IMG/VR virus record: IMGVR_UViG_3300019776_000583
Location: 1 to 20,161 of that record
DNA: 20,161 nt
From: a virus
Lineage: Duplodnaviria > Heunggongvirae > Uroviricota > Caudoviricetes
Direction: 5' to 3' (one strand)
The translations under genes and the position numbers were made by a program. The notes under the pieces are model-generated. The model did no database searches. It was not told where the DNA came from and saw only the letters and a list, made by a program, of their open reading frames with translations. Shown here in pieces: positions 201 to 20,161 of this stretch (position 1 is the first letter of the stretch; each line of letters begins with the position of its first letter).

Positions 201-500
201 GTGAAGAAGCACGATCTCGTCGACACCATCGCAAAGGCCAGCGGCATCCACCGGCAGACGGTTCGCGATGTCTTGAACGCAGCTGCAGGCGCGGTGCGAG
301 ACGCATTGGCCGCCGGCGAGCCGGTGTTCCTGTTCGGCCTGGGCAAGTTGTCGATCACGCAGCGCGGAGAGAAGGCTGCGCGCAACATTCACACCGGCCA
401 GCCGGTCATCGTGCCACCCAGGAAGGTCGCCGTGTACCGCTCCAGCTCCTCGGTAGACGATGCCATCAACGCTCGAAGCCCTGCTACGGCAGAGGCGTAG
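201..500 (+). CDS. HU/IHF-family histone-like DNA-binding protein
   Basis: MKKHDLVDTIAKASG N-terminus and V.LFGLGKL...RGEKAARNIHTGQPVIVPPRK arm typical of the HU family. GTG start. Confidence 0.92.
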   Translation: MKKHDLVDTIAKASGIHRQTVRDVLNAAAGAVRDALAAGEPVFLFGLGKLSITQRGEKAARNIHTGQPVIVPPRKVAVYRSSSSVDDAINARSPATAEA

Positions 501-912: not shown

Positions 913-1436
913 AGCGATCCGGATTCAGGTCCAAGGGCTGGGAGCCGCGGCCCACCAAGACAATCGACTACGTGCCGCGCCCGCGCTCGACCGTGGTGAT
1001 CTCGGCGACGTCGACAGCACTCATCAAGCCGCAGCCAAAGAGCCCGCCAGGGCGCAGCCAGGCCTATCGCGACCTGGCTCGCGACAAGCCCTGCATGGTC
1101 CAGGTCCCGGGCGTCTGCTGCGGCGACGCCGCCACCACCGTGCTCGCGCATAGCAACGAGGGCGCCAACGGAAAGGGCCTTGGCCTGAAGGCTGATGACG
1201 CGATCGGCAGCGCCTGGGCCTGCTTCACGTGCCACGCCTGGGTCGACCAGGGTAGGGCGCCCGCGGAAAGCAAGAAGGCCGCCATGGAGGCGGCCTTCGC
1301 AAGGCAGATCGTGGAGATCGAGCGCATCGCTGCGTCGGGCAGTCTCCGCGACCGGGCGGCAGCCCAATGGGCCCTCGACAGGATCAGGCGGGCTGAGCCA
1401 CCGCAGTCGGAGCCAGCACCTCGAAGCGCTCGCTGA
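909..1436 (+). CDS. DUF1364/YbcO-like Zn-binding putative nuclease
   Basis: ARDKPCMVQVPGVC...TTVLAHS...GLGLKADD...AWACFTCHAWVD. ATGA overlap with the upstream gene. Confidence 0.8.
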   Translation: MKRSGFRSKGWEPRPTKTIDYVPRPRSTVVISATSTALIKPQPKSPPGRSQAYRDLARDKPCMVQVPGVCCGDAATTVLAHSNEGANGKGLGLKADDAIGSAWACFTCHAWVDQGRAPAESKKAAMEAAFARQIVEIERIAASGSLRDRAAAQWALDRIRRAEPPQSEPAPRSAR

Positions 1437-1626
1437 AGCCGGCCGACTCTTTCAGGGTCAACACCTTCAGGTCAGCGTCTTCGCGGCTGTCGGCCGTGGC
1501 TGCGTCGACCAGGTGCAGGCCGTCGTACTGAGCGACGACGAACTTGCCGGCTGCGCGCGCGGCCTGGATGGCAGTGTTGGTGACGCTGGCCTGGTTGGCC
1601 CGGTTAATCTGATTCAGGTCATTCAT
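1384..1626 (-). CDS. Hypothetical protein (80 aa)
   Basis: ATGA coupling to the upstream gene and phage-like codon use. Confidence 0.65.
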   Translation of the reverse strand: MNDLNQINRANQASVTNTAIQAARAAGKFVVAQYDGLHLVDAATADSREDADLKVLTLKESAGFSERFEVLAPTAVAQPA

Positions 1627-1979
1627 GGTGCTGCTTTCGTGGTGATGTAGGGCTGAGCGCCCGGGGAGGGAACAAGGTGCGAGCGCGTAGTGTAGTTGCA
1701 GATGTTGCCGATGCGATCAATGCTCACGCAATATCCGAGTGACTCAAGGTGCGACCGGATCTGGCTGCTCGTCATGCCGCACTGCTCTCTCAGGCGACGG
1801 GCCTCGAGGATCAGCTCATCGGAGCCTTTGCCTGGAGGCCGCGGGTGAGGCTGCTTTATCTTGATGGCGCGAGGCGTGGCATAGTCGGCGCCGAGCACTG
1901 ACGTCACCAAGCTGTCGCGCAAAGGGGTGCGGTGCGTGATAGAGGTGCCGCTGCTGCGCTTGGGGCGGTCCTGCATCAA
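1623..1979 (-). CDS. Hypothetical protein, possible HTH
   Basis: SDELILEARRLREQCGMTSSQIRSHL...SIDRIGNICNY resembles an HTH. Coupled overlaps at both ends. Confidence 0.55.
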   Translation of the reverse strand: MMQDRPKRSSGTSITHRTPLRDSLVTSVLGADYATPRAIKIKQPHPRPPGKGSDELILEARRLREQCGMTSSQIRSHLESLGYCVSIDRIGNICNYTTRSHLVPSPGAQPYITTKAAP

Positions 1980-2350
1980 GTCATCCTCGCGCCAGGCCTG
2001 GCCGGCTCTCGGTGCGACTGGGCCGCCGCGCAGATTGCGCTGGCCAGCACGTCGTACACCCGCGATCCGCCAAGGGTCCAGTTGTTGGGTGCCGCAATCG
2101 GCGTGCCGTCGTCATCGACTCGAGCGAGCTGGCCCCGACCGTCTGAGCAGCCGGAGACGCCAACCCTGCCGCGGGACACGCCGCTGGCTGTCGAGAGATC
2201 GACGAGCATGTCGACCTGCATCATCTTGTTGACGTTCTCGTAGACCCGCAGCGTGGCCGGCTGCACGACGAAAACCCCAGCCCCGCTTGGTAGGACGATC
2301 GCTTCTGGAGATGAGGTGGCCAGGAGGGCCGCGAGGATGAGGGCCTTCAC
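1976..2350 (-). CDS. Putative secreted/periplasmic protein
   Basis: N-terminus MKALILAALLATSSPEA is signal-peptide-like. Two Cys. GTGA overlap. Confidence 0.65.
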   Translation of the reverse strand: MKALILAALLATSSPEAIVLPSGAGVFVVQPATLRVYENVNKMMQVDMLVDLSTASGVSRGRVGVSGCSDGRGQLARVDDDGTPIAAPNNWTLGGSRVYDVLASAICAAAQSHREPARPGARMT

Positions 2351-2679
2351 AGGGCCTCCGTCAGTCTGATGAGGGCCCTTGCCGTGCGCGCCCGGGCCGC
2401 CAGGCCTTGGCGCATCGATGTCAGGCCATCGACCAGGAGGTTGCTTCTGCGCAGGTCAAACGTGTCGCCGTTCTTGAACAGCACGCCTTGGTCTGGCTGC
2501 GCGCCGACTATGTAACGGTGCAGAAGGATTGTGATGCCACCTTCGGTGCGGGCTACGTAGAGGTGGTTGGAGGTGTTGACAATGCGCCAGACGTATCCCC
2601 GGAGCAGGTATGCGTCTTGCGGGTCGACGGTGACAACCCGCTGCCCGTAGGGCTTGCTCCTGATGATGAAGCCGCTCAT
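2347..2679 (-). CDS. Degenerate HNH-family protein
   Basis: LLHRYIVGA...GVLFKNGDTFDLRRSNL matches the HNH_3 pattern apart from the catalytic positions. RBS GAAAGGA. Confidence 0.7.
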   Translation of the reverse strand: MSGFIIRSKPYGQRVVTVDPQDAYLLRGYVWRIVNTSNHLYVARTEGGITILLHRYIVGAQPDQGVLFKNGDTFDLRRSNLLVDGLTSMRQGLAARARTARALIRLTEAL

Positions 2680-2900
2680 TGGTTTCCTTTCTGCGCCATG
2701 GCGGCGTACTTCTTGCGGAGGGCCTCGGCCTTCTTTTCGCTGTCTGCATGGCGGCCTTCGGCGACGAAGACGTGGTCGACGCGCTGCAGGTCGGTGCGGT
2801 CGAAGATGGCGTAGGTATCACCGGCAGAGATGCAGAGGCCGACGAAGTGCGCGTTGCCGGCGCGCACGTGGCGGTTCATGGTGGGGGAGTTGACGATCAC
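2676..2900 (-). CDS. Hypothetical protein (74 aa)
   Basis: GTG start inside a GTGA overlap with the upstream stop. VIVNSPTMNRHVRAG... Confidence 0.65.
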   Translation of the reverse strand: MIVNSPTMNRHVRAGNAHFVGLCISAGDTYAIFDRTDLQRVDHVFVAEGRHADSEKKAEALRKKYAAMAQKGNQ

Positions 2901-3202
2901 AGCTTGGCTCCCAGTGCCTTCGCGTAGGTCTCGACGCAGTCGAGGACCTCGCGGCCGTCGGTGCAGAAGCTGGCGCCGTCGCAGGGGTCCTTGGGGCCCT
3001 GCAGCTTCGTGCACGTCACCCAGTAGGCGCTCACACCCTCGCGGTCGATGACGATGCTTGGGTGCGCGGCGGCCAGTTTCTTGGCCTTGGCGAGAGCGGC
3101 GGTGGACTTGCCGCGCTCGGACTGCAGGGTCTTGCGCAGCGCGCCGTCGTTGGCGCGCACAGGCACGCCGAAGTACTTGCCGAGGATGTTCCAGTCTGCC
3201 AT
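2897..3202 (-). CDS. Hypothetical protein (101 aa)
   Basis: AAGGAG RBS before ATG at 3202. MADWNILGKYFG... Confidence 0.75.
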   Translation of the reverse strand: MADWNILGKYFGVPVRANDGALRKTLQSERGKSTAALAKAKKLAAAHPSIVIDREGVSAYWVTCTKLQGPKDPCDGASFCTDGREVLDCVETYAKALGAKL

Positions 3203-3218
3203 GTGATCTCCTTGGTGG

Positions 3219-3704
3219 TTAGGCCGAGGCCTTGAGTTTGGTCTTCGCCGGCTTGCCGGCCTTGGTGAGGGTGGCCTGGTAGGCCAAGGCCTTCGCCCTG
3301 GCGGCCTCGAGCGCGTCGTTGTCGCGCACCGACTCCAGGACCGTGTCGGCCGTGTACCCGCCGATCGAGCTCGTGACACCGTTGCGCTTGTAGGTGATCT
3401 CGAGCCGGTCGGCGACGCCGTTGAAGACGGTCTTGCTCGGCTTGATCGAGACGACGTAGTGCCAGCGGTCGGGGCCCAGGCCCATGCTGCCGGTGGACAT
3501 GATGATGTTGTCGCCGGGCCTGATCTCTGAGATGGGCTTTTGGAGCAGCGAGCTCAAGAAGGCCTTGGCCGCCTTGCCGCGCTTCGTGAGCCTCAGGCCG
3601 GTGCCGCCGCAGCCGAAGCAGCGGGTGCCGTTCATGGGGTTGTAGCTGTAGTGGCCACCACCGCCGCAGCGGCCGCAGGTTTCGGTCTCGAAGATGGTGG
3701 CCAC
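3219..3704 (-). CDS. DnaJ-type Zn-finger (CxxCxGxG x2) protein
   Basis: CGRCGGGG and CFGCGGTG repeats. GTG start at 3704 after AGGAG. Confidence 0.75.
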   Translation of the reverse strand: MATIFETETCGRCGGGGHYSYNPMNGTRCFGCGGTGLRLTKRGKAAKAFLSSLLQKPISEIRPGDNIIMSTGSMGLGPDRWHYVVSIKPSKTVFNGVADRLEITYKRNGVTSSIGGYTADTVLESVRDNDALEAARAKALAYQATLTKAGKPAKTKLKASA

Positions 3705-3779
3705 GTAATCTCCTGTTTGCGTTGACGACAGAACAAATTGTGGCACAGCCAACAGAAAGTTGTATAGGTAGTTACCCTA
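3705..3779 (-). promoter_or_regulatory. Repeated promoter/RBS linker, copy 1
   Basis: Minus strand: TAG GGTAACTACCTATA CAACTTTCTGTTG GCTGTGC CACAAT TTGTTCTGTCGTCAACGCAAACAGGAG. Confidence 0.8.
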
Positions 3780-3977
3780 GAACACAAGCAGGAGCAGCGC
3801 GGCGCCGCAGACTGTGATCGTCAGGCCAAGGCGGTAGGCGATCGTCAGTAGCCTGTTGGCTTTGGTGAGGTTTTTGCGTGGCCACAGCAGTGGCGCCAGG
3901 AGGCCGAGCGTCACGGACAGGCCGGAGTACAGTAGGCCCGCCACGACGACGAACAGGGCGTTGGTGTCAGCACTCAT
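3777..3977 (-). CDS. Small membrane protein (66 aa, 2 TM)
   Basis: Two hydrophobic stretches. ATGA overlap. Confidence 0.7.
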   Translation of the reverse strand: MSADTNALFVVVAGLLYSGLSVTLGLLAPLLWPRKNLTKANRLLTIAYRLGLTITVCGAALLLLVF

Positions 3978-4195
3978 CGTCCGCACTCCCTCAAGAACTC
4001 GCGCGCCGCGGTGTCGGCGCCCTGCTGGTCGTGCGCGCTTCGGCAGCCGTTGAGCACGCGGTCCAGGTGATCCAGGGCCTGGCGCAGCTGGCGCTCGGTG
4101 TGCGTCTCGGGGCAGCCGTGTGGCCACGCCGAGCAGGCGCGCCGGTGGCGCTCGAGGATGGCGTCGTTGCTCTGGGGGTCGATGCCAGCACTCAT
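3974..4195 (-). CDS. Hypothetical protein (73 aa)
   Basis: Coupled overlaps at both ends. Confidence 0.65.
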   Translation of the reverse strand: MSAGIDPQSNDAILERHRRACSAWPHGCPETHTERQLRQALDHLDRVLNGCRSAHDQQGADTAAREFLRECGR

Positions 4196-4419
4196 CGTGT
4201 CACCGCCTCAGCGGCGGTCTCGACCCACACTTTGGCGCCGCAGCTCAGCGGCTTGTCGGGCGAGTAGACGACCCTGCTCGGCCCGAGGATCTCGACCTCA
4301 TGGGCGTAGGTGTTGGTGCGCCCGCGCTTGACCGTGATGACGGGGTCGCGCGCTCCGGTCTTGAGGTTGGCCCTGATGATTGCCTGGTTGACGTGGACCC
4401 GGGTGATAGCTGCGCTCAT
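4192..4419 (-). CDS. Conserved phage hypothetical protein (75 aa)
   Basis: RVHVNQ..IR.N...PVITVK.GRTNTYAHEVEILGPS.VVYSPDKPLSCGAKVWVET, recalled as a widespread phage family. Confidence 0.75.
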   Translation of the reverse strand: MSAAITRVHVNQAIIRANLKTGARDPVITVKRGRTNTYAHEVEILGPSRVVYSPDKPLSCGAKVWVETAAEAVTR

Positions 4420-4763
4420 CAGTAGCTCCCCCGCGCCAGGCGCGTCTTCACCACCGTGCGGAAGTGGCCCATGGCCAGCGGCTGCAGGCTTTCCTGCTCG
4501 ATGGTCAGCACGACACCGGAGTGTGCCGCGCGCTTCGCCAGGGCGCCCGCCTCGAGGCGCACGCGGTCGACCTCGTTGGAGGCCAGCTTGCGCTGCTGGT
4601 CGTGCAGCTCGGTCTTGAGCCGCCGGAAGCTGGCCAGGGCGCGATCAGCCTGGCCCAGGGCCTCGTGACGGGCGCCGTCGAAGCGCGCAAGCTCGCGCTG
4701 GAGGTTCTCGAGCTCGTCGAGTAGAAGGTTGCGCTCTGCGCGCAGGCGTTCAGCGTCGGTCAT
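4419..4763 (-). CDS. Coiled-coil hypothetical protein (114 aa)
   Basis: Heptad-rich sequence, GGAG RBS, TGATG overlap downstream. Confidence 0.7.
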   Translation of the reverse strand: MTDAERLRAERNLLLDELENLQRELARFDGARHEALGQADRALASFRRLKTELHDQQRKLASNEVDRVRLEAGALAKRAAHSGVVLTIEQESLQPLAMGHFRTVVKTRLARGSY

Positions 4764-4770
4764 GGATCTC

Positions 4771-4959
4771 CTACAGAGTGGTGGGAAGCGTCTGCTCGAC
4801 GCGGATCTCGTAGCCCAGCCGCTTGATCAGCTCGAGCGTGGGCTTGGTGAGGGTCTTGGTGCCTGCGATCTGGGCGAAGAGCTCGCCGGTGCGGCATGCG
4901 GGCTGCACGACCTTCTGGCCGTACTGCTGCTCGAGGCGGACGGTGATGTGGGTTGTCAT
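4771..4959 (-). CDS. Conserved phage hypothetical protein (62 aa)
   Basis: TAATG overlap. YGQKVVQPAC...FAQIAGTKTLT...IKRLGYEI recalled as a common phage family. Confidence 0.7.
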   Translation of the reverse strand: MTTHITVRLEQQYGQKVVQPACRTGELFAQIAGTKTLTKPTLELIKRLGYEIRVEQTLPTTL

Positions 4960-5456
4960 TAGAACTCCTGGTTGTAGCGATCGACGACACCCTTGACGAG
5001 GCCCCACGTGCCACCGGCCTGGGTCCAGCCGGAGGACAGCTTGTTGCGGTAGAACCGCAGCTTGCCGCGGGGCCCGTCGACGGTGATGACGCGGCGCGTC
5101 GGGGCGGCGCTGATCGAGATGATCTTGCCGATCGGGAAGTAGTCGCCGTTGAACCCTTTGCTCACCTCGTCGCCGACCTGCGGGCAGGCCATCACGTCGA
5201 AGCGCGGGCTCACGCTCGGGCCATTGTCGACGGGTATCCAGTCCTCGCCGGTGAGCGCGGTGGCGCTGGCCGCGAGGCGGGTCACGAACTCGAGGGACGG
5301 GAAGTCCCAGCGCTCGATCCATCCGGCGCCCAGCGGCTTGCCGGGCTGGCGGGCCCAGATGCTGGGGTCGCGGCCGGCGCCATCGATGTTCGTGCGGCCG
5401 TCGACGATCTCGACGACGTTGAGCTGGTTGTCCAGGCGGAAGTGGTTGACGGACAT
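4959..5456 (-). CDS. Hypothetical protein (165 aa)
   Basis: GAGGAG RBS and globular-looking sequence. Confidence 0.75.
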   Translation of the reverse strand: MSVNHFRLDNQLNVVEIVDGRTNIDGAGRDPSIWARQPGKPLGAGWIERWDFPSLEFVTRLAASATALTGEDWIPVDNGPSVSPRFDVMACPQVGDEVSKGFNGDYFPIGKIISISAAPTRRVITVDGPRGKLRFYRNKLSSGWTQAGGTWGLVKGVVDRYNQEF

Positions 5457-5466
5457 GGCGGTCTCC

Positions 5467-5754
5467 TCAGAAGGGTGCGGGGTCGGCCAGATCGCGGCCG
5501 GTGGGCGGCGCGCTGGCGGAGGCGCGCGGGAAGGGCCAGTTGAGGGCGGGCTGCTCGCGCGGCACGATCACGCCGTGCTGCTGCGACAGGTGCGGCCACA
5601 GGCCGTGCTGCTCGATCAGGTTCTCGAGCTCATCCTTCGTGCGGCGGGCGAGCGTCGAGCGGTGCAGGGTGGCCAGCGTCGCAGCCACGGCCGCCGGGTG
5701 AGTGGCAACCAGGGGCAGCGCTCGGTCGACGGCCTTCTGTTCGGACTTGTTCAT
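5467..5754 (-). CDS. Hypothetical protein (95 aa)
   Basis: ATG at 5754 just after the upstream stop. MNKSEQKAVDRAL... Confidence 0.65.
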   Translation of the reverse strand: MNKSEQKAVDRALPLVATHPAAVAATLATLHRSTLARRTKDELENLIEQHGLWPHLSQQHGVIVPREQPALNWPFPRASASAPPTGRDLADPAPF

Positions 5755-5758
5755 GGCG

Positions 5759-6061
5759 TCAGGCCGAGAAGTCGCCGGCCTGGGTGCGGTCGTGACGGCT
5801 GAGCAGGACGGACGCATTGACGGCAGGGATCTCGTGGCGGCGCCCGGTGGCGCTGTAGCGGTCGTAGCAGACCGATAGGCGACGAAGCGCTTCCAGCAGC
5901 TCGGTGTACGTCGGCAGCACGGCGTTGTTGAGGCAGCTGTCGGCAGTGGCGATGGCCTCTTGGGCGACGGTGGGCTTGCCGGCGTCGACATCGGCCTCAT
6001 GCGCGGTTTTGGCGATGCAGGCGGCGAGGAGGGTGTTGCGGGGAATCAAGGTGCCGGACAT
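5759..6061 (-). CDS. Hypothetical protein (100 aa)
   Basis: CAGGAG RBS of the linker before ATG at 6061. Confidence 0.75.
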   Translation of the reverse strand: MSGTLIPRNTLLAACIAKTAHEADVDAGKPTVAQEAIATADSCLNNAVLPTYTELLEALRRLSVCYDRYSATGRRHEIPAVNASVLLSRHDRTQAGDFSA

Positions 6062-6141
6062 GTAAAACTCCTGGTTGGTTTGCTTGACAGGCGAACGAAT
6101 AGTATCAAAGCCAACAGAAAGTTGTATTGGGACAAACCCTA
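6062..6141 (-). promoter_or_regulatory. Repeated promoter/RBS linker, copy 2
   Basis: Minus strand: TAG GGTTTGTCCCAATA CAACTTTCTGTTG GCTTTGA TACTAT TCGTTCGCCTGTCAAGCAAACCAACCAGGAG. Confidence 0.75.
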
Positions 6142-6321
6142 TGCCGACCGAACCAGGACAACCCGCCCCGTCGAGCGATCGCGCTGGATGATGTCGCCTG
6201 GCTTGATCGGCGCGCCCGTGTCTGCGCAGCGGCCGACGAATCGGGCCGTCTCGTCGCGCGGGCCGCGGGGCTCGCCCAGCTCGCGGCGGAAGTGCCCGCC
6301 CGTGCCTCGGTAGCCGGTCAT
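6139..6321 (-). CDS. Hypothetical protein (60 aa)
   Basis: ATGA overlap. ARFVGRCADTGAPIKPGDII. Confidence 0.65.
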   Translation of the reverse strand: MTGYRGTGGHFRRELGEPRGPRDETARFVGRCADTGAPIKPGDIIQRDRSTGRVVLVRSA

Positions 6322-6677
6322 CGGTGCACCCCGCCGGCGCGGCGATTGTTCTGCGGCGTTGCCAGGTCCCAGACGGACGCCACGCGCACGCGGCGCAATG
6401 CGCGGTAGCGCTCGCCGTAAGCAGCCTCACCCAGCGGCTTGGGCTTCGCGGGCCTGGCGCGCGGGCCCGGGCCGGCAGACCAGAGCGCGCGCGGGTACAG
6501 GCGGCCGCCATCGTCGTCTCGGCGCCAGCCGGAGATGTGGACCAGGCTCGATGTCCCCATGGTGCTGAGCTTTGCTCGGACACTGGCGACCGGGGACCCG
6601 ACCTCGGCGGCCAGCTCGCGGGCGGTCATCGGGATGCCGAGCGCGAGGGCTGCGGCGATGCGTTGGGATAGGGTCAC
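6318..6677 (-). CDS. Winged-HTH DNA-binding protein
   Basis: MTARELAAEVGSPVASVRAKLSTM...VHISGWRR. GTGA-coupled start. Confidence 0.65.
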   Translation of the reverse strand: MTLSQRIAAALALGIPMTARELAAEVGSPVASVRAKLSTMGTSSLVHISGWRRDDDGGRLYPRALWSAGPGPRARPAKPKPLGEAAYGERYRALRRVRVASVWDLATPQNNRRAGGVHR

Positions 6678-7051
6678 GCCGCCGCCTTCTGGGCCAGCTC
6701 GAGGCGCGAGCCGTCGGGCGTGATGAAGCGCCCGGGGTCGAAGTCGCCCCAGGCGGCGGCGCGGGGGCCGATCAGGCGGCCTTCCTTGCGCGCGGGCAGC
6801 CAGACAGCGATGGCGTCCTGGCCGGTCAGTTCGGCGACCTTGTGGACCGCGTCGGCTAGGCTGACGTCGACCTTGCAGTAGGTGGCCAGGCCCCACTCGG
6901 CGGCGACGACCAGGGTCGGCTCGGTGTCCGAATCGATCGTCTCGCTGGTGCGGACGAAGAAGCCGTGGGTGGACAGGACCTGCAGCACGCTGTTGGCTGC
7001 GACGATGCCGAAGGCCTCAGAGGCCAGGCCGATGTTGAGGTGAACGAGCAC
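6674..7051 (-). CDS. Hypothetical protein, candidate SAM lyase (T3 SAMase-like)
   Basis: TEPTLVV and GQDAIAVW resemble the T3 SAMase segments TEEKTVRV and EQDCVLVY. The ORF is secure, the function is inferred. Confidence 0.45.
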   Translation of the reverse strand: MLVHLNIGLASEAFGIVAANSVLQVLSTHGFFVRTSETIDSDTEPTLVVAAEWGLATYCKVDVSLADAVHKVAELTGQDAIAVWLPARKEGRLIGPRAAAWGDFDPGRFITPDGSRLELAQKAAA

Positions 7052-7117
7052 TCATTGCTTTCTGCTGCAGTGGGAGACTCCACTCGCCTGGGCTGGCTGC
7101 CCAAGCGGCTGGGGTCG

Positions 7118-7333
7118 TCAGCCGACGATGGTGAATCGGTGCCCTCGGCGGATGACGCAAGAGCCCGCATCCGCCTTGAACTCGACGCAGTCGACCGAGT
7201 CCGGCCAGCGCCGCGCCTCGACCTCGGGCGCGCCGAGGATGGCGCGTTCGCGCTGCCCGACAACGTCGGCCATCCGGCGCAGCAGGGAAAGACCGAAGCC
7301 GCGAGCTGGGGCGAAGGTGTGGCGGAAGTACAT
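7118..7333 (-). CDS. Hypothetical protein (71 aa)
   Basis: AGGAG five nt before ATG. First gene after linker copy 3. Confidence 0.6.
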   Translation of the reverse strand: MYFRHTFAPARGFGLSLLRRMADVVGQRERAILGAPEVEARRWPDSVDCVEFKADAGSCVIRRGHRFTIVG

Positions 7334-7406
7334 TTCATCTCCTGTAAGCGTTGACGACAGAGCCTATTGTGCACACCACAACAGCGTGTTGCGTAGGTGT
7401 TTACCC
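7334..7406 (-). promoter_or_regulatory. Repeated promoter/RBS linker, copy 3
   Basis: Minus strand: GGGTAA ACACCTACG CAACACGCTGTTG TGGTGTG CACAAT AGGCTCTGTCGTCAACGCTTACAGGAG. Confidence 0.8.
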
Positions 7407-7619
7407 GCGACTCTTGAGGAAGTTCACGTAGTGGTCCCAGTTCGCGCTGGTCAGGAACCAGAGCGTCTTGTCGATGCCGGGCCCGATCAGGCCCCAATCG
7501 AACTTCGCTCCGGGCCGCTGCGAGTCGCGCAGCACCAGCACGTAGGGGTACGCGCCGCCGGCGCTGTGCTTCTGGACGGACGAACCGTCGGGGAGGTGGC
7601 CTTGGTAGGTGGTGGTCAT
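7401..7619 (-). CDS. Hypothetical protein (72 aa)
   Basis: ATG shortly after the upstream stop. Its stop TAA lies in the linker. Confidence 0.7.
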   Translation of the reverse strand: MTTTYQGHLPDGSSVQKHSAGGAYPYVLVLRDSQRPGAKFDWGLIGPGIDKTLWFLTSANWDHYVNFLKSRG

Positions 7620-7628
7620 GGGTGACTT

Positions 7629-7808
7629 TCAGCTTTGGGTCGGGGGCAGCGGGATGTCGCCGGTCTTCTTGCAGTACGCCATGCAAGCCTCTTCGGACTC
7701 GTGACGCATGACGGACAAGTGCCCGGTCGGGTTGTAGCTGGACCACTTGGTGGGGTGGTGCAGTGCGGGGAGGGTCTTGCCCTCTCGCTCTTGGTGCCAG
7801 GTAGGCAT
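7629..7808 (-). CDS. Hypothetical protein (59 aa, not in the ORF track)
   Basis: GAGGAG RBS. MPTWHQEREGKTLPALHHPTKWSSYNPTGHLSVMRHESEEACMAYCKKTGDIPLPPTQS fills the gap exactly. Confidence 0.75.
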   Translation of the reverse strand: MPTWHQEREGKTLPALHHPTKWSSYNPTGHLSVMRHESEEACMAYCKKTGDIPLPPTQS

Positions 7809-7818
7809 ATCGGTCTCC

Positions 7819-8151
7819 TCAGTGTTTGATGCGGATGTAGGTCGGGCCGTCGCGCTCGCCGCCGCTCCAGCTCGGGCGCGTCATGGCGCGCACCCAGGCC
7901 TCGTGCTCGGCGATCGTCGGCTCTTCGTGACGCTCCTGGCCCGTCGAGATCCGGCCGACTGGGCCGCGGCGCACCGCCTCGTCGGAGAGCAGGTAGGTTT
8001 CGCCCGGGCCGACGAGGTACTGCTCCTCGCGGAGGTACTGGGCTGCCAGGTCGAAGCTGGTCGCTGCGACGTAGATGGCGATGTAGGGGCGGCGGCCCTC
8101 AGGCGTGGCGGGGGCGAACTGCAGGGCGCAGTAGATGCGGGGCTGGGTCAT
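7819..8151 (-). CDS. Hypothetical protein (110 aa)
   Basis: CAGGAG RBS before ATG at 8151. Confidence 0.75.
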   Translation of the reverse strand: MTQPRIYCALQFAPATPEGRRPYIAIYVAATSFDLAAQYLREEQYLVGPGETYLLSDEAVRRGPVGRISTGQERHEEPTIAEHEAWVRAMTRPSWSGGERDGPTYIRIKH

Positions 8152-8178
8152 CGTGGTCTCCTGGTTGACGGTCACAAG

Positions 8179-8215
8179 GGTCAGCCTCGGGGCTGACCGC
8201 TGCGACCTGCAGCGG
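8179..8215. other. Tandem intergenic hairpins
   Basis: GGTCAGCC-TCGG-GGCTGACC followed by CCGCTGC-GACCT-GCAGCGG (2-nt overlap). No U-tract. Confidence 0.55.
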
Positions 8216-8221
8216 GGGTGG

Positions 8222-8581
8222 TTAGGCGAAGGCCTCTTCTTCCGCCTCGCGGCGCTCGAGGGCGATCTCATCCTCAGGGTCGTAGGCGTCGCTGCCGTAG
8301 GCCGGCCGACCCTCTTGCCAGCGACCGAAAGCCACCGGCAGCTTGCCCAGGGCCAGGCGCGCGTTCAGTGCCGCGGCGACCGCCTCGGCGCCGGCCAGGC
8401 ACTCGCGCTCGTCTCGGCTGGTGGTGATGTAAAGCTCACGACGGTCACCGCTCTCGCTGTCGGCGACGACGTAGGCGGAGAAGCCGTACAGGTGACCGCG
8501 TGGGTTGCTGAAGTCGGCCATCTCGGGGTGACTGCCCACGACGACGATGTCGGTGCGGGCGAAAAATTGGGTGACTCGCAT
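8222..8581 (-). CDS. Hypothetical protein with acidic C-terminus (119 aa)
   Basis: AGGAG RBS. First gene of the leftward block. Tail DAYDPEDEIALERREAEEEAFA. Confidence 0.75.
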   Translation of the reverse strand: MRVTQFFARTDIVVVGSHPEMADFSNPRGHLYGFSAYVVADSESGDRRELYITTSRDERECLAGAEAVAAALNARLALGKLPVAFGRWQEGRPAYGSDAYDPEDEIALERREAEEEAFA

Positions 8582-8660
8582 CTTTCTGCTCCTGTTTGTG
8601 TTGACCACAGAACAGATTGTGCCACAGCCAACAGACGGTTGTGCGTAGGTGCTTACCCTA
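8582..8660 (-). promoter_or_regulatory. Repeated promoter/RBS linker, copy 4
   Basis: Minus strand: TAG GGTAAGCACCTACGCA CAACCGTCTGTTG GCTGTGG CACAAT CTGTTCTGTGGTCAACACAAACAGGAG. Confidence 0.8.
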
Positions 8661-8720
8661 TGCCCCTGCATGCTGGGCCCGAGATCGTGGAGTAGGGGCA
8701 CAAGGGCCGGTCGGCGACCC

Positions 8721-8764
8721 TAGAATCGCGCGCATCCGGTTGCGCGCTGTTGCTACCCTGTTGC
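8721..8764 (+). promoter_or_regulatory. Possible rightward (lysis/late) promoter -10 and leader elements
   Basis: TAGAAT at 8721-8726, GCGCGCA/TGCGCGC inverted repeat, CTGTTGC twice. No good -35. Confidence 0.4.
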
Positions 8765-8787
8765 CCACGAAAGGAACCCCCCCCACA

Positions 8788-9039
8788 ATGACCCCGAAAT
8801 TCTTGCCGCGTCGGCAGCTCCTGAAGCTGTGGAGCGTGCGCATCCAGGGCCTGTGGGCTGCCGCGTGCGGGGCGTACGTCGCACTGCCCGCGGAGCAGCA
8901 GGCCGCCCTGGCCGCGCTTGTCGGACTCGGCGGCGACGGCGGGGTTGCGGCACTCAGTCTCTTCGCCCAGGCCTCGATCGCGATCAGCGCCGCGACGATC
9001 GCAGCGCGCGCGACCCGCCAGCCGGGGCTCGACGCATGA
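8788..9039 (+). CDS. Putative holin
   Basis: 83 aa, basic N-terminus with LWSVRIQ, hydrophobic segments, C-terminal RQPGL, first gene of the lysis cluster, AAGGA RBS. Confidence 0.6.
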   Translation: MTPKFLPRRQLLKLWSVRIQGLWAAACGAYVALPAEQQAALAALVGLGGDGGVAALSLFAQASIAISAATIAARATRQPGLDA

Positions 9040-10822: not shown

Positions 10823-11080
10823 ATGCTGGAGATTTTGATGTGGGCCGCGGTGGTGATGTCGGCTGTCGCGCTGGGGTTGGCGTGGTGGATCTCGCGAGAG
10901 TCCGCCGAAGCCATCCGCCGCCTCGAGGACGCCCTGCGCGGCGACCGAGAGGGGTGGTGGTCGCTGACAAGCAGGCTGGCCGAAGTCTCGGTCGACATGA
11001 CTGACCTGGCCTCGACCGTCGGCCTGCGCCGGGCCAAGCCCCGGGAGCGCCAGAATGCGTGGGAGCACAAGCTGCAATGA
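10823..11080 (+). CDS. Membrane-anchored hypothetical protein (85 aa)
   Basis: N-terminal TM and CAGGAG RBS. Confidence 0.7.
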   Translation: MLEILMWAAVVMSAVALGLAWWISRESAEAIRRLEDALRGDREGWWSLTSRLAEVSVDMTDLASTVGLRRAKPRERQNAWEHKLQ

Positions 11081-11337
11081 GGCCGTCCGAGATGAAGGTC
11101 CTCGAGTTGCTGCGCATCCACCAGCCAATCGCGAGGCGGGAGCTGGCAGCGTTGCTGAAGATCGCACCCGCCACGGCGTCGGTGCATCTGCAGTCGCTCA
11201 AGCGGCAGGGCCTGGCCACAGGCTCGGGCCACGGCTGCGGCTCTGTCTGGAGGCTCTGCACGGGTCGCAGGGCGGGAGCCGCCGGCGCTAGCGGGCCGAT
11301 GGTCAACGACGTCTTCAGCTTCGCGGCGAGCCTATGA
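11077..11337 (+). CDS. Winged-HTH DNA-binding protein (ArsR/MarR-like)
   Basis: KVLELLRIHQPIARRELAALLKIAPATASVHLQSLKRQGL. Confidence 0.8.
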   Translation: MRPSEMKVLELLRIHQPIARRELAALLKIAPATASVHLQSLKRQGLATGSGHGCGSVWRLCTGRRAGAAGASGPMVNDVFSFAASL

Positions 11338-19300: not shown

Positions 19301-20015
19301 GGCCTTCGATGCGAACGGCATCCTGACGCACAACACCGCAGCTCTCGCATTCCAGACCGGCACGATGAACCCGCTGTGCTCGCCGCACTTCGTGAGCTCG
19401 GCAGCCAACGGCGACTTCTACGACGAGGCCGGCGCCCTGATCATCGGCTGCGACCCGGCGAGCGACGGCGCCAGCACCAAGGACCGGACCTGCATCGTCT
19501 TCCGCCGCGGCCGCGTGGTGTTTCGTGTGGAGTACCACGACAAGCTCAGCTCGATGCAGGTCGCCGGCAAGCTGGCCAACTACTACGCAGAGTTCGATCC
19601 TGACGCGATCTTCGTGGACAAGGGCGGCATCGGCACTGGCATCGTGGATCGCTTGCAAGAGCTGCAGATTCCTGTGATCGGAGTGATGTTCGGGGAGGCC
19701 GCAAGCGAGCCCGACATCTACGCCAACAAGAAGGCCGAGATGTGGTGGCGAATGAAGGATTGGTTCGAGGAGAAGCCGAACCGCATCGTCAACAACCCCG
19801 CGTTCATCAGCGACATCTGCGCGCCGCAGCCCGACGTCTCGAGCAACGGGCGCAAGCTCCTCGAGTCGAAGGAGAAGCTCGAGAAGCGCCAGATCAGAAG
19901 CCCTGACGGCGGCGACGCGCTGGCCCTGACGTTCGCCGAGAAGGTCATGTCCAAGGCAGCTATGGCGGGCAGCACCAAGACGTCGCACGAGACGGCATCC
20001 AAGGCCGGCTACTGA
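16326..20015 (+). CDS. terL: Terminase large subunit precursor with two inteins (1229 aa, 507 aa spliced)
   Basis: Walker A ILKGRQQGIST, Walker B QLLHG/SE, motif III LESTGNG, QEYPA/T, RNase H-like nuclease IGCDPA, FVDKGG, SPDGGDALALTF. Confidence 0.95.
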   Translation: MTEDDPKLAGLKLLRDNLEVYSAHCLKVKTKDGRIVPFIWNRAQRFVHAQLEEQRKRLGFVRALILKGRQQGISTLVGARFYHRTTMNLGQQAFIVTHEQKATDNLYQMVRRYHDHNLIPISTGATNAKELIFDLLDGGYKLATAGTKDVGRSNTAQLLHGCLGAGALVMMADGSLRAIETLEPGDVVRTRRGFEAPVKGISWHSGSTRELRIAMNGLRLRATDSHKFWTRRGMVALADLRVGDELGFPVREITEEILTTRFACDPTVRAHGGGRSEAPGPESMPLTFELGRMLGLYLAEGHVDLQTKAPHAPAAVIFACHERELERNTAWVREVGGFSSLSERSNKGSKTRMTNAYGRQFASFVLRMCGRNGGKHLPHEWWRMPREFVRGLLVGYLAGDGHCSPERDRRIQAPSIVPAIAYGMRDVVAALGYGFPSVSFRDARQRGGRNEKAQYTLRITGSAVDAIAPMLGWEMPPRSRAVHDTRIQGGYAWLAIDSIGDPADEMVWDIEVDHPDHDYCLTQCATSNSEFGFWANAQSHLAGIGNTIVDAAPTEIILESTGNGLGNAFHLMWQDAEEGKGLYIPIFVPWFWQEEYRAPVRADLELSDADIAYRDCHGLDMEQMQWRANKITSYGDGFAWLFDQEYPACVVAGTRVGTSAGLIKIEDVASGMAATMGAIEASNKQPPSQIFKLTTSLGYEFRGTWDHPVFTAGGVLLPMMSCKGVDIRLQPPMLAEAQHVERWREFGVDSSIRVEEDFGLLLGLFMGDGSLYDGCVSFCCDARDGDVVAECQRLLQDVLGISSATRQVGSKGGGVEVRAQRKELTAVFDRLGLLRDGAGNSGRKRMVCVPECIWRSPRPVVIQFLRGLFESDGFNGYGHPRVTLFSKHKDFLGGTQLLLLALGITSRLGLETSRKGDKTHVGYSLTMRRNESIKFNEVVGFISKRKSDKAASWRAVGKTGARRLEIEMVDRVASVVEDGFEATYDMTVRGGEAFDANGILTHNTAALAFQTGTMNPLCSPHFVSSAANGDFYDEAGALIIGCDPASDGASTKDRTCIVFRRGRVVFRVEYHDKLSSMQVAGKLANYYAEFDPDAIFVDKGGIGTGIVDRLQELQIPVIGVMFGEAASEPDIYANKKAEMWWRMKDWFEEKPNRIVNNPAFISDICAPQPDVSSNGRKLLESKEKLEKRQIRSPDGGDALALTFAEKVMSKAAMAGSTKTSHETASKAGY
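16809..17909 (+). mobile_element. Intein 1 with LAGLIDADG homing endonuclease (367 aa)
   Basis: Starts CLGAGALV, block B TDSHKFW, GLYLAEG and GYLAGDG motifs, ends TSN before +1 Ser. Removal restores LLHGSE. Confidence 0.92.
18270..19334 (+). mobile_element. Intein 2 with LAGLIDADG homing endonuclease (355 aa)
   Basis: Starts CVVAGTRV, block B TWDHPVF, GLFMGDG and GLFESDG motifs, ends NGILTHN before +1 Thr. Removal restores QEYPAT. Confidence 0.95.
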
Positions 20016-20017
20016 GG

Positions 20018-20161
20018 ATGAACATGGACCCACGCATCTACCTGCGCCTTGCGCCGTACGCCGTCATCCTGGGCCTGTGCCTGGGCCTGTGGAGCGCCAT
20101 CAACTGGGGCCAGGGCCACAAGGTCGCGAGGCAGGCTGCGGAGGCCGCGATCGTGACCCTG
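20018..20161 (+). CDS. 5' end of a membrane-anchored protein, possibly an i-spanin (truncated)
   Basis: GAGG RBS. MNMDPRIYLRLAPYAVILGLCLGLWSAINWGQGHKVARQAAEAAIVTL is an N-terminal TM followed by Ala-rich helix. Start could be 20024. Confidence 0.45.
   Translation, partial: MNMDPRIYLRLAPYAVILGLCLGLWSAINWGQGHKVARQAAEAAIVTL

Follow-up and report, generated by a model that had tools for sequence, protein, structure and literature searches.

The stretch of DNA analysed here (the window; 20,161 nucleotides) comprises the first 20,161 bases of a virus record (IMG/VR record IMGVR_UViG_3300019776_000583; 84,161 bp; 64.8% G+C). On its minus strand lies a leftward block of about 25 small accessory genes, antisense to the rightward operons on either side, among which family matches are nearly absent. 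Within the block are four short intergenic repeats, each of which carries the palindrome CAAC-N5-GTTG (hereafter the box) a few nucleotides upstream of a -10-like hexamer. The phage itself is a temperate, lambda-like mosaic, as indicated by its gene content: an integrase, Erf- and RecE-like recombination genes, O-like, DnaC-like and NinB genes, an HU-like gene, a NinI-like phosphatase, a small terminase, and a large terminase with an intein. From the sequence comparisons described below, we read the four repeats as real promoter cassettes of small early genes, with the box being most likely, at a probability of roughly 0.55, the site of the phage's own 434-type repressor.

Anatomy of the four cassette promoters

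The functional strand of all four units is the minus strand. Each unit is about 80 bp long, spans the interval from the stop codon of one gene to the start codon of the next, and has the same order of elements: the stop codon within (TA)GGGTAA..ACCTA, the box, 7 nt, a hexamer reading CACAAT or TACTAT, GTTC, 6 nt, CAAC or CAAG, a ribosome-binding site (RBS) reading ACAGGAG or CCAGGAG, and the start codon (coordinates in Table 1). The original prediction had described palindromes at 3750, 6112, 7379 and 8629, each 7 nt before CACAAT (three copies) or TACTAT (one copy), together with a conserved GTCAA and an RBS. All of these elements were found as described, with GTCAA extending to GTCAAC or GTCAAG and the gap from box to hexamer being exactly 7 nt throughout. 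TGn directly precedes the hexamer in copies 1, 2 and 4, and GTG is found in its place in copy 3, also as reported. The conserved unit is, however, longer than had been proposed, since it begins with the GGGTAA..ACCTA element that holds the upstream stop codon. A sigma-70 consensus scan of positions 1300-8900 found no promoter scoring at least 9/12; the -35 of the cassette units is therefore poor, which had likewise been noted from the sequence.

The closest relative of the phage, L005/L025 (repressor 73% identical), bears three further units of the same type (L025:3804, 4360 and 7297), the last of which is the counterpart of unit 2. This gives seven cassette copies for footprinting. Invariant or nearly invariant over the seven are GGGT(T)AAC..CCTA, CAAC, GTTG, positions A2, C3 and T6 of the hexamer, GTTC, and CAA. 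The hexamer reads CACAAT in three copies, TACTAT in two, and AACAAT and TACACT in the remaining ones; A2 and T6 are kept in 7/7, and TGn precedes the hexamer in 5/7 (3/4 in the phage studied here). Because A2, T6 and TGn are conserved across the cassette copies, the hexamer is regarded as a true -10. The hexamer sits within nAC-N5-GTTC, which can be aligned with the proximal boxes of the two-box promoters described below, and on account of this alignment a second operator probably overlaps the -10 and start site of the cassette units. A further conserved element, GGGT(T)AAC..CCTA, is located 15-17 nt upstream of the box in all seven copies, where it is centred near -42. It forms a 10-bp palindrome in L025 (GGGTTAACCC) and is absent from the two-box promoters.

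Other readings of the repeated unit were considered. The consensus fold of the unit reaches only -2.7 kcal/mol, with zero covarying pairs and no stem-loop, and a role as RNA structure was rejected on these grounds. Several candidate motifs were dropped by eye: the IHF consensus, which does not fit the general box; a LexA site (CTGT-N8-ACAG), which is absent; a sigma-54 promoter on the other strand, which would lack TTGC; an extracytoplasmic function (ECF)-type promoter with GGGTAAC as -35 and GTTG as -10, for which the spacing is 16-19 and AAC is not conserved; and TGTCGT as the real -10, which is missing the essential A.

The box marks predicted promoters across the phage genome

The box is more widespread than the "four-copy" family originally proposed, which was an undercount. 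CAAC-N5-GTTG has five matches in the window, compared with 0.15 expected, and ten in the genome as a whole, compared with 0.91 expected (about tenfold enrichment); none of 200 first-order Markov simulations gave more than 4. The remaining window match (151-163) sits in the promoter of the HU-like gene, 3 nt from TATAAG. The exact 12-mer AACTTTCTGTTG has five copies in the genome, all of them intergenic or at a gene edge. The dyad GTTG-N6-CAAC is not enriched on its own (3 genomic matches vs 0.88 expected). Apart from the cassettes and the HU-gene promoter, the box is found at P_R, next to a CI-like repressor gene, and at internal promoters located at 68.4, 73.8, 75.9, 76.8 and 81.1 kb.

The two-box promoters are built from a distal box, 6-7 nt, a proximal CAAC-N5-GTTG, 0-3 nt, and a good -10, with the TTG of the distal box acting as a -35 located 16 nt upstream of the -10. 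Tandem box pairs spaced 19 bp are found at 68379, 75946 and 76755, while a lone box at 73827 abuts TATAGT. At 81076, ahead of the replication genes, the same 13-mer is inverted relative to its promoter and ends 3 nt before TAGAAT. Within a single genome the gap between box and -10 thus varies (0-3, 7 or 19 nt), which corresponds to box positions of -24..-13, -31..-20 or -43..-32. At all box promoters, the dyad-symmetric site overlaps core promoter elements, covering the spacer or the -35. As the placement of the box shifts from promoter to promoter, the boxes look like operators over core promoters and not like a fixed promoter element or a classical activator site.

Additional features were observed at or near individual box promoters. 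A two-box-like promoter, GTTG-N6-CACC-N5-GTTG-TATATT, follows a T-run at genome positions 79400-79440 on the minus strand, and probably drives a 2.1-kb structured-RNA array. A small zinc-ribbon open reading frame (ORF) of the CxxC...CxxC type (genome 68399-68563, minus strand; about 54 aa), which has a homologue in relative G001, has its TAA stop in the distal box of the 68.4-kb promoter. In more distant relatives (L034:11780-11850 and 20000-20070), an intrinsic terminator hairpin has its U-tract in the T-rich left part of the distal box, and the terminator is thereby fused to the next promoter.

A 434-type repressor as the candidate reader of the box

The best candidate for a protein that reads the box is most likely the CI-like HTH_3 protein of 156 aa, which is encoded outside the window and transcribed away from P_R (Table 1). 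Its helix-turn-helix (HTH) aligns with the 434 repressor (E 7e-6), and a Pfam search of the protein found only the HTH and no LexA-like cleavage domain. The box-like sites on P_R adjoin its gene. The P_R operon begins with the gene for a conserved 118-aa protein, which is followed by one for a 195-aa protein whose C terminus is a winged helix and then by the replication genes.

The original prediction had envisaged a dimeric regulator controlling all modules, encoded by one of the HTH genes at 1623, 6318, 11077 and 16048 or by the host. The first part of this proposal stands, in that the box behaves like the site of one symmetric DNA-binding protein tying together many promoters. The proposed regulators have less in their favour. 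None of the four HTH candidates was matched in G001, a complete relative that bears boxes, and L025 shows just one of them, the 1623 gene; the regions around 11077 and 16048 fall outside the other loci. The absence of the four from G001 weighs only weakly, because G001 lacks the 156-aa repressor too. Of the candidates themselves, 11059-11337 is a real ArsR-like winged helix, and the ORF listed as 6318-6896 is a gene at 6318-6677 (minus strand; about 119 aa) whose GTG start overlaps the upstream stop (GTGA). The product of the latter resembles a winged helix and has no Pfam match.

In the mechanism that we propose, the four repeats would be extended -10 promoters (TGn plus CACAAT or TACTAT, with a weak -35) used by the host RNA polymerase, and each would head a cassette of small early accessory genes. 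CAAC-N5-GTTG would be an operator; it occupies about -32 to -20, past the weak -35 and ahead of the -10. A second, degenerate box (nAC-N5-GTTC) spans the -10 and start site and is followed 6 nt later by a further CAAC half-site. The same box occurs on every recognisable early promoter of the phage, including P_R beside the 156-aa repressor with its 434-like HTH. Repressor dimers bound to these phased boxes would keep all early promoters off in the lysogen, the four cassettes included, and the cassette genes would be early lytic genes that are not expressed from the prophage. We infer promoter activity, protein binding and the sign of regulation from the sequence anatomy, enrichment of the box, its conservation in relatives, its co-occurrence with one repressor type, and its confinement to the prophage stretch of a host genome.

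No recognisable promoter for the repressor gene was found in the switch region of the phage (genome 79607-80184; L004:9607-10184). The two switch promoters of L007 are convergent, like those of coliphage 186. In L009:5090-5140 and in G001 (L012:1330-1380), both of which are without a repressor gene, one box pair is shared by the leftward and the rightward switch promoter, which lie back to back with a -10 abutting each outer end of the pair.

Conservation and co-occurrence in related phages

Many metagenomic contigs of about 80-86 kb encode homologues of the repressor, as does a Polynucleobacter genome. Gene order and promoter grammar are shared by the ten records whose contexts were examined, which range from 51 to 66% G+C, and over some 30 promoters from ten phage records the spacers vary but the tetramers are retained. 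Boxes were detected in all records with the 156-aa repressor type (11/11, a count that ignores shared ancestry). They are absent from the relatives with other repressor/Cro types (3/3: L018/L039, which has a lambda-type repressor, L044 and L046), all of which keep the 118-aa gene. The prophage L033 and L034 have boxes and repressor without the 118-aa and 195-aa proteins.

The 2-Mb Polynucleobacter genome (assembly GCA_018881575.1), which carries a related prophage, provides a view of the box in a host. All exact composite sites (3/3) and all exact CAACWTTTTGTTG sites (6/6) lie within 1.097-1.153 Mb, a stretch that includes the prophage locus, and one-mismatch matches elsewhere in that genome occur at the control rate.

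Several observations weigh against assigning the boxes wholly to the repressor. G001, which is an 81-kb relative (99% complete) with no integrase, and the fragment L009 both lack the repressor and still bear the distal box and the CAAC of the proximal box; part of the conservation is therefore independent of the repressor. In G001, the proximal boxes remain palindromic in only 2/7 cases (a small sample), which suggests that they decayed once the repressor had been lost. The TTG of the distal box doubles as a -35 and GTTG can double as the TG of an extended -10, and some of the conservation therefore belongs to RNA polymerase. Furthermore, the boxes in this phage's own P_R are degenerate (9/12), with clearer versions in L005, L007 and L035. 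Overall, the presence-absence pattern favours the 156-aa repressor as the reader of the box. It falls short of proof, because the counts take no account of common descent and RNA polymerase itself contacts part of the box.

Alternative explanations

Another conserved phage protein, such as a Cro-like factor or an HU-like protein comparable to SPO1 TF1, could potentially read the boxes and damp early promoters during lytic growth, with or without the CI-type repressor sharing the sites. The persistence of boxes in the repressor-less G001 and L009 speaks for such a reader, which we nevertheless consider unlikely. An HU-like gene is found in every relative whose locus covers the region and has a box promoter of its own, and half-sites recur every 9-10 bp over 30-40 bp, which would be a typical footprint size for HU or IHF. 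The HU-like protein is, however, most similar to ordinary, non-specific HU and was rejected as box reader for this reason. The 118-aa protein at the Cro position was also rejected. Its model is confident (predicted local distance difference test, pLDDT, 88) and has no fold match in the PDB, to a DNA-binding protein or otherwise; the protein has no Pfam family; and its gene, with a short winged helix-turn-helix (wHTH) homolog in L018, occurs in box-free relatives with unrelated repressors. Neither it nor the 195-aa early protein is present in the box-bearing L033 and L034.

The original prediction regarded the box as an activator site standing in for the missing -35, in the manner of T4 MotA boxes or Mu Mor/C sites, and the activator could be bound on the opposite DNA face, as are lambda CII and MerR. 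The likeness to the T4 and Mu sites lies in a conserved element near -30 where the -35 is poor. In the four units a usable -35 is missing, the box is at about -32 to -20, GGGT(T)AAC..CCTA is centred near the classic class II activator position, and a winged-helix protein is encoded at the CII position of the P_R operon. Other observations make an activator distinctly unlikely. The TGn extended -10 of the cassettes can function without a -35. Elsewhere the box abuts the -10, and it also occurs on promoters with a TTG in the -35 position and a -10 close to consensus (TATAAT at best, in G001), which have no need of activation. The same is true of P_R, on which the box also lies, an immediate-early promoter that must fire before any phage protein exists. 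Unlike the MotA and Mor/C sites, the element is palindromic and not at a fixed distance from the -10 (0 to 19 nt), and it occurs in tandem pairs. Searches of the genome with domain models for MotCF (the C-terminal part of MotA), AsiA and the r2 and r4_2 domains of sigma factors gave no match, and neither L033 nor L034, both of which bear boxes, encodes the winged-helix protein.

The units might instead serve no dedicated regulator, being portable promoter-leader cassettes that are kept alike by recombination and act mainly as homology joints for swaps of accessory genes. Such mobile regulatory cassettes have been documented in T4-type phages as promoter(early) stem-loop (PeSL) elements (PMC2839356, PMC4122927). 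When this phage is compared with L025, the promoter units stand out as islands (about 60-80 bp, 55-90% identity) from a background of about 30%; the genes directly flanking the units are unrelated, and genes further along are homologous. The units also run exactly from stop codon to start codon. With unrelated genes flanking the cassette copies in L025, the units thus also look like mosaic joints, and like PeSLs they form a repeated early-promoter unit beside variable genes of unknown function that is conserved between genomes while its neighbours differ. PeSLs, however, join the promoter to a terminator stem-loop and no hairpin is present here; the phages in question are temperate and siphovirus-like, not T4-like; and the unit here carries a predicted operator. 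Recombination would not by itself keep the tetramers while the spacers diverge, nor would it preserve a single box in promoters of different construction and in genomes that range from 51 to 66% G+C. As a complete explanation it is improbable, and as an additional one it is compatible with an operator role, since a mosaic joint can coexist with an operator.

A host transcription factor as the reader of the box, which was also among the original suggestions, has nothing but the dyad symmetry to recommend it and is very improbable, given that the motif is confined to the prophage stretch of the Polynucleobacter genome; a host regulon was rejected on the same evidence.

A bolder reading can be offered as speculation, which we regard as doubtful. 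The units of about 80 bp could be mobile "expression adaptors", combining promoter, operator, leader and RBS, for the capture and exchange of accessory genes that would probably be anti-defence genes. They would then be PeSL-like elements outside the T4 group. The phased CAAC/GTTG arrays might perhaps also be read by a second protein, which would explain their persistence in the repressor-less relatives.

Comparison with known operator systems

Operators of phage 434 have the form ACAA-N6-TTGT. The boxes resemble the sites of the CI and Cro proteins of this lambdoid phage in being short, dyad-symmetric and placed over core promoters, in having a half-site, (A)CAAC, that is similar to ACAA, in having a candidate reader whose HTH aligns with that of the 434 repressor, and in occurring in a divergent switch region that adjoins the repressor gene. 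They differ in that the predicted operators are also found on at least 10 promoters far from the switch region and that their half-sites are one base pair further apart. The repressor differs as well, having no LexA-like cleavage domain.

The stoperators of cluster A mycobacteriophages, which are sites for L5 gp71, offer a second parallel. In both systems, many sites for one immunity repressor are (here, would be) spread over short intergenic gaps of early operons, and the sites resemble a -35 and can coincide with promoters. Mycobacteriophage D29, a lytic relative, has lost the L5-type repressor gene and keeps stoperators that resemble -35 elements and can act as promoters (PMC12266134), a retention that parallels G001 and L009. 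Stoperators, however, are asymmetric 13-mers that function in one orientation and block elongation, whereas the boxes are palindromic, can occur in either orientation (inverted at 81076) and are placed on promoters. The two systems also have unrelated hosts and repressor families.

Repeated repressor operators on many phage promoters are thus a well-known arrangement, and neither a new activator system nor a new principle of gene control is at hand. In database and literature searches, no near-identical record was found in the phage collection searched, the exact promoter pattern had no match in the viral contigs searched, scans with two single window proteins returned no matches, a look-up of sequencing runs for this DNA listed none, and a literature search found no occurrence of the 12-mer.

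Features of the genome and neighbouring regions

The coordinates of the features are listed in Table 1. The divergent region to the right of cassette 4 (window 8745-8795, plus strand) has two direct CTGTTG repeats, a run of eight C, and CACAAT, and may be the rightward promoter of the NinI-like phosphatase/terminase operon. A 721-aa RtcB-like RNA ligase, apparently interrupted by an intein, is encoded at L009:7798-9963, where it adjoins the structured-RNA array found beyond the switch region in this group of phages, on its downstream side.

Table 1. Promoter units, boxes and genes of the phage, in genome coordinates (identical to window coordinates up to 20,161).
Feature	Position	Strand	Description
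Leftward block	1384-8701	minus	About 25 small accessory genes served by the four cassette promoters
Cassette unit 4	8582-8662	minus	First of leftward block; GGGTAAGCACCTA; GGGT(T)AAC..CCTA element 8642-8662; box 8629-8641 (CAACAGACGGTTG on plus strand); TGG; -10 CACAAT 8616-8621; GTTC; GTCAAC; RBS; ATG just outside at 8579-8581
First gene of cassette 4	8222-8581	minus	119 aa, no family match
Cassette unit 3	7334-7407	minus	Upstream stop TAA within GGGTAA; GGGT(T)AAC..CCTA element 7392-7407; box 7379-7391 (CAACAGCGTGTTG on plus strand); -10 CACAAT 7366-7371, no TGn; GTCAAC; RBS; ATG just outside at 7331-7333
First gene of cassette 3	7118-7333	minus	71 aa, no family match
Cassette unit 2	6062-6146	minus	Upstream stop TAG within TAGGGT; GGGT(T)AAC..CCTA element 6125-6146; box 6112-6124 (CAACAGAAAGTTG on plus strand); TGA; -10 TACTAT 6099-6104; GTCAAG; RBS CCAGGAG; ATG just outside at 6059-6061
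First gene of cassette 2	5759-6061	minus	100 aa, unrelated to the gene after the counterpart promoter in L025
Cassette unit 1	3705-3785	minus	Upstream stop TAG within TAGGGTAA; GGGT(T)AAC..CCTA element 3764-3785; box 3750-3762 (CAACAGAAAGTTG on plus strand); TGC; -10 CACAAT 3737-3742; GTCAAC 3721-3726; RBS 3710-3716; GTG start just outside at 3702-3704
First gene of cassette 1	3219-3704	minus	161 aa
Two-box promoter of HU-like gene	141-172	plus	GTTG-N6-CAACCAGATGTTG-TGC-TATAAG
HU-like gene	201-500		
Integrase gene	65177-66271		
Two-box promoter	68379		-10 TACGAT
Erf- and RecE-like recombination genes	70-74 kb	minus	
Two-box promoter	75946		-10 TATACT
Two-box promoter	76755		-10 GATAAT
CI-like HTH_3 protein gene	79607-80077	minus	156 aa; transcribed away from P_R; outside window
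Two-box promoter P_R	80104-80151		TTGGCA-N18-TACAAT
Conserved 118-aa protein gene	80185-80541		First P_R operon gene (L004:10185-10541)
O-like, DnaC-like and NinB genes	81-84 kb	plus	

Implications for uncultivated Burkholderiales phages

The promoter layout described here is best read as a repressor-controlled grammar common to a lineage of uncultivated Burkholderiales phages. It provides a concrete regulatory map for a group of these phages from freshwater, in which the early promoters share a single word of 13 bp that singles out the 156-aa repressor as the likely master switch. If this is true, the 25-gene accessory block would be silent in lysogens and switched on early in lytic growth, a prediction that may help in reading those genes of the block that have no known role, for example as candidate anti-defence genes. 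The box could also be of practical use in related metagenomic contigs, as a means of locating early promoters and of telling immunity groups.

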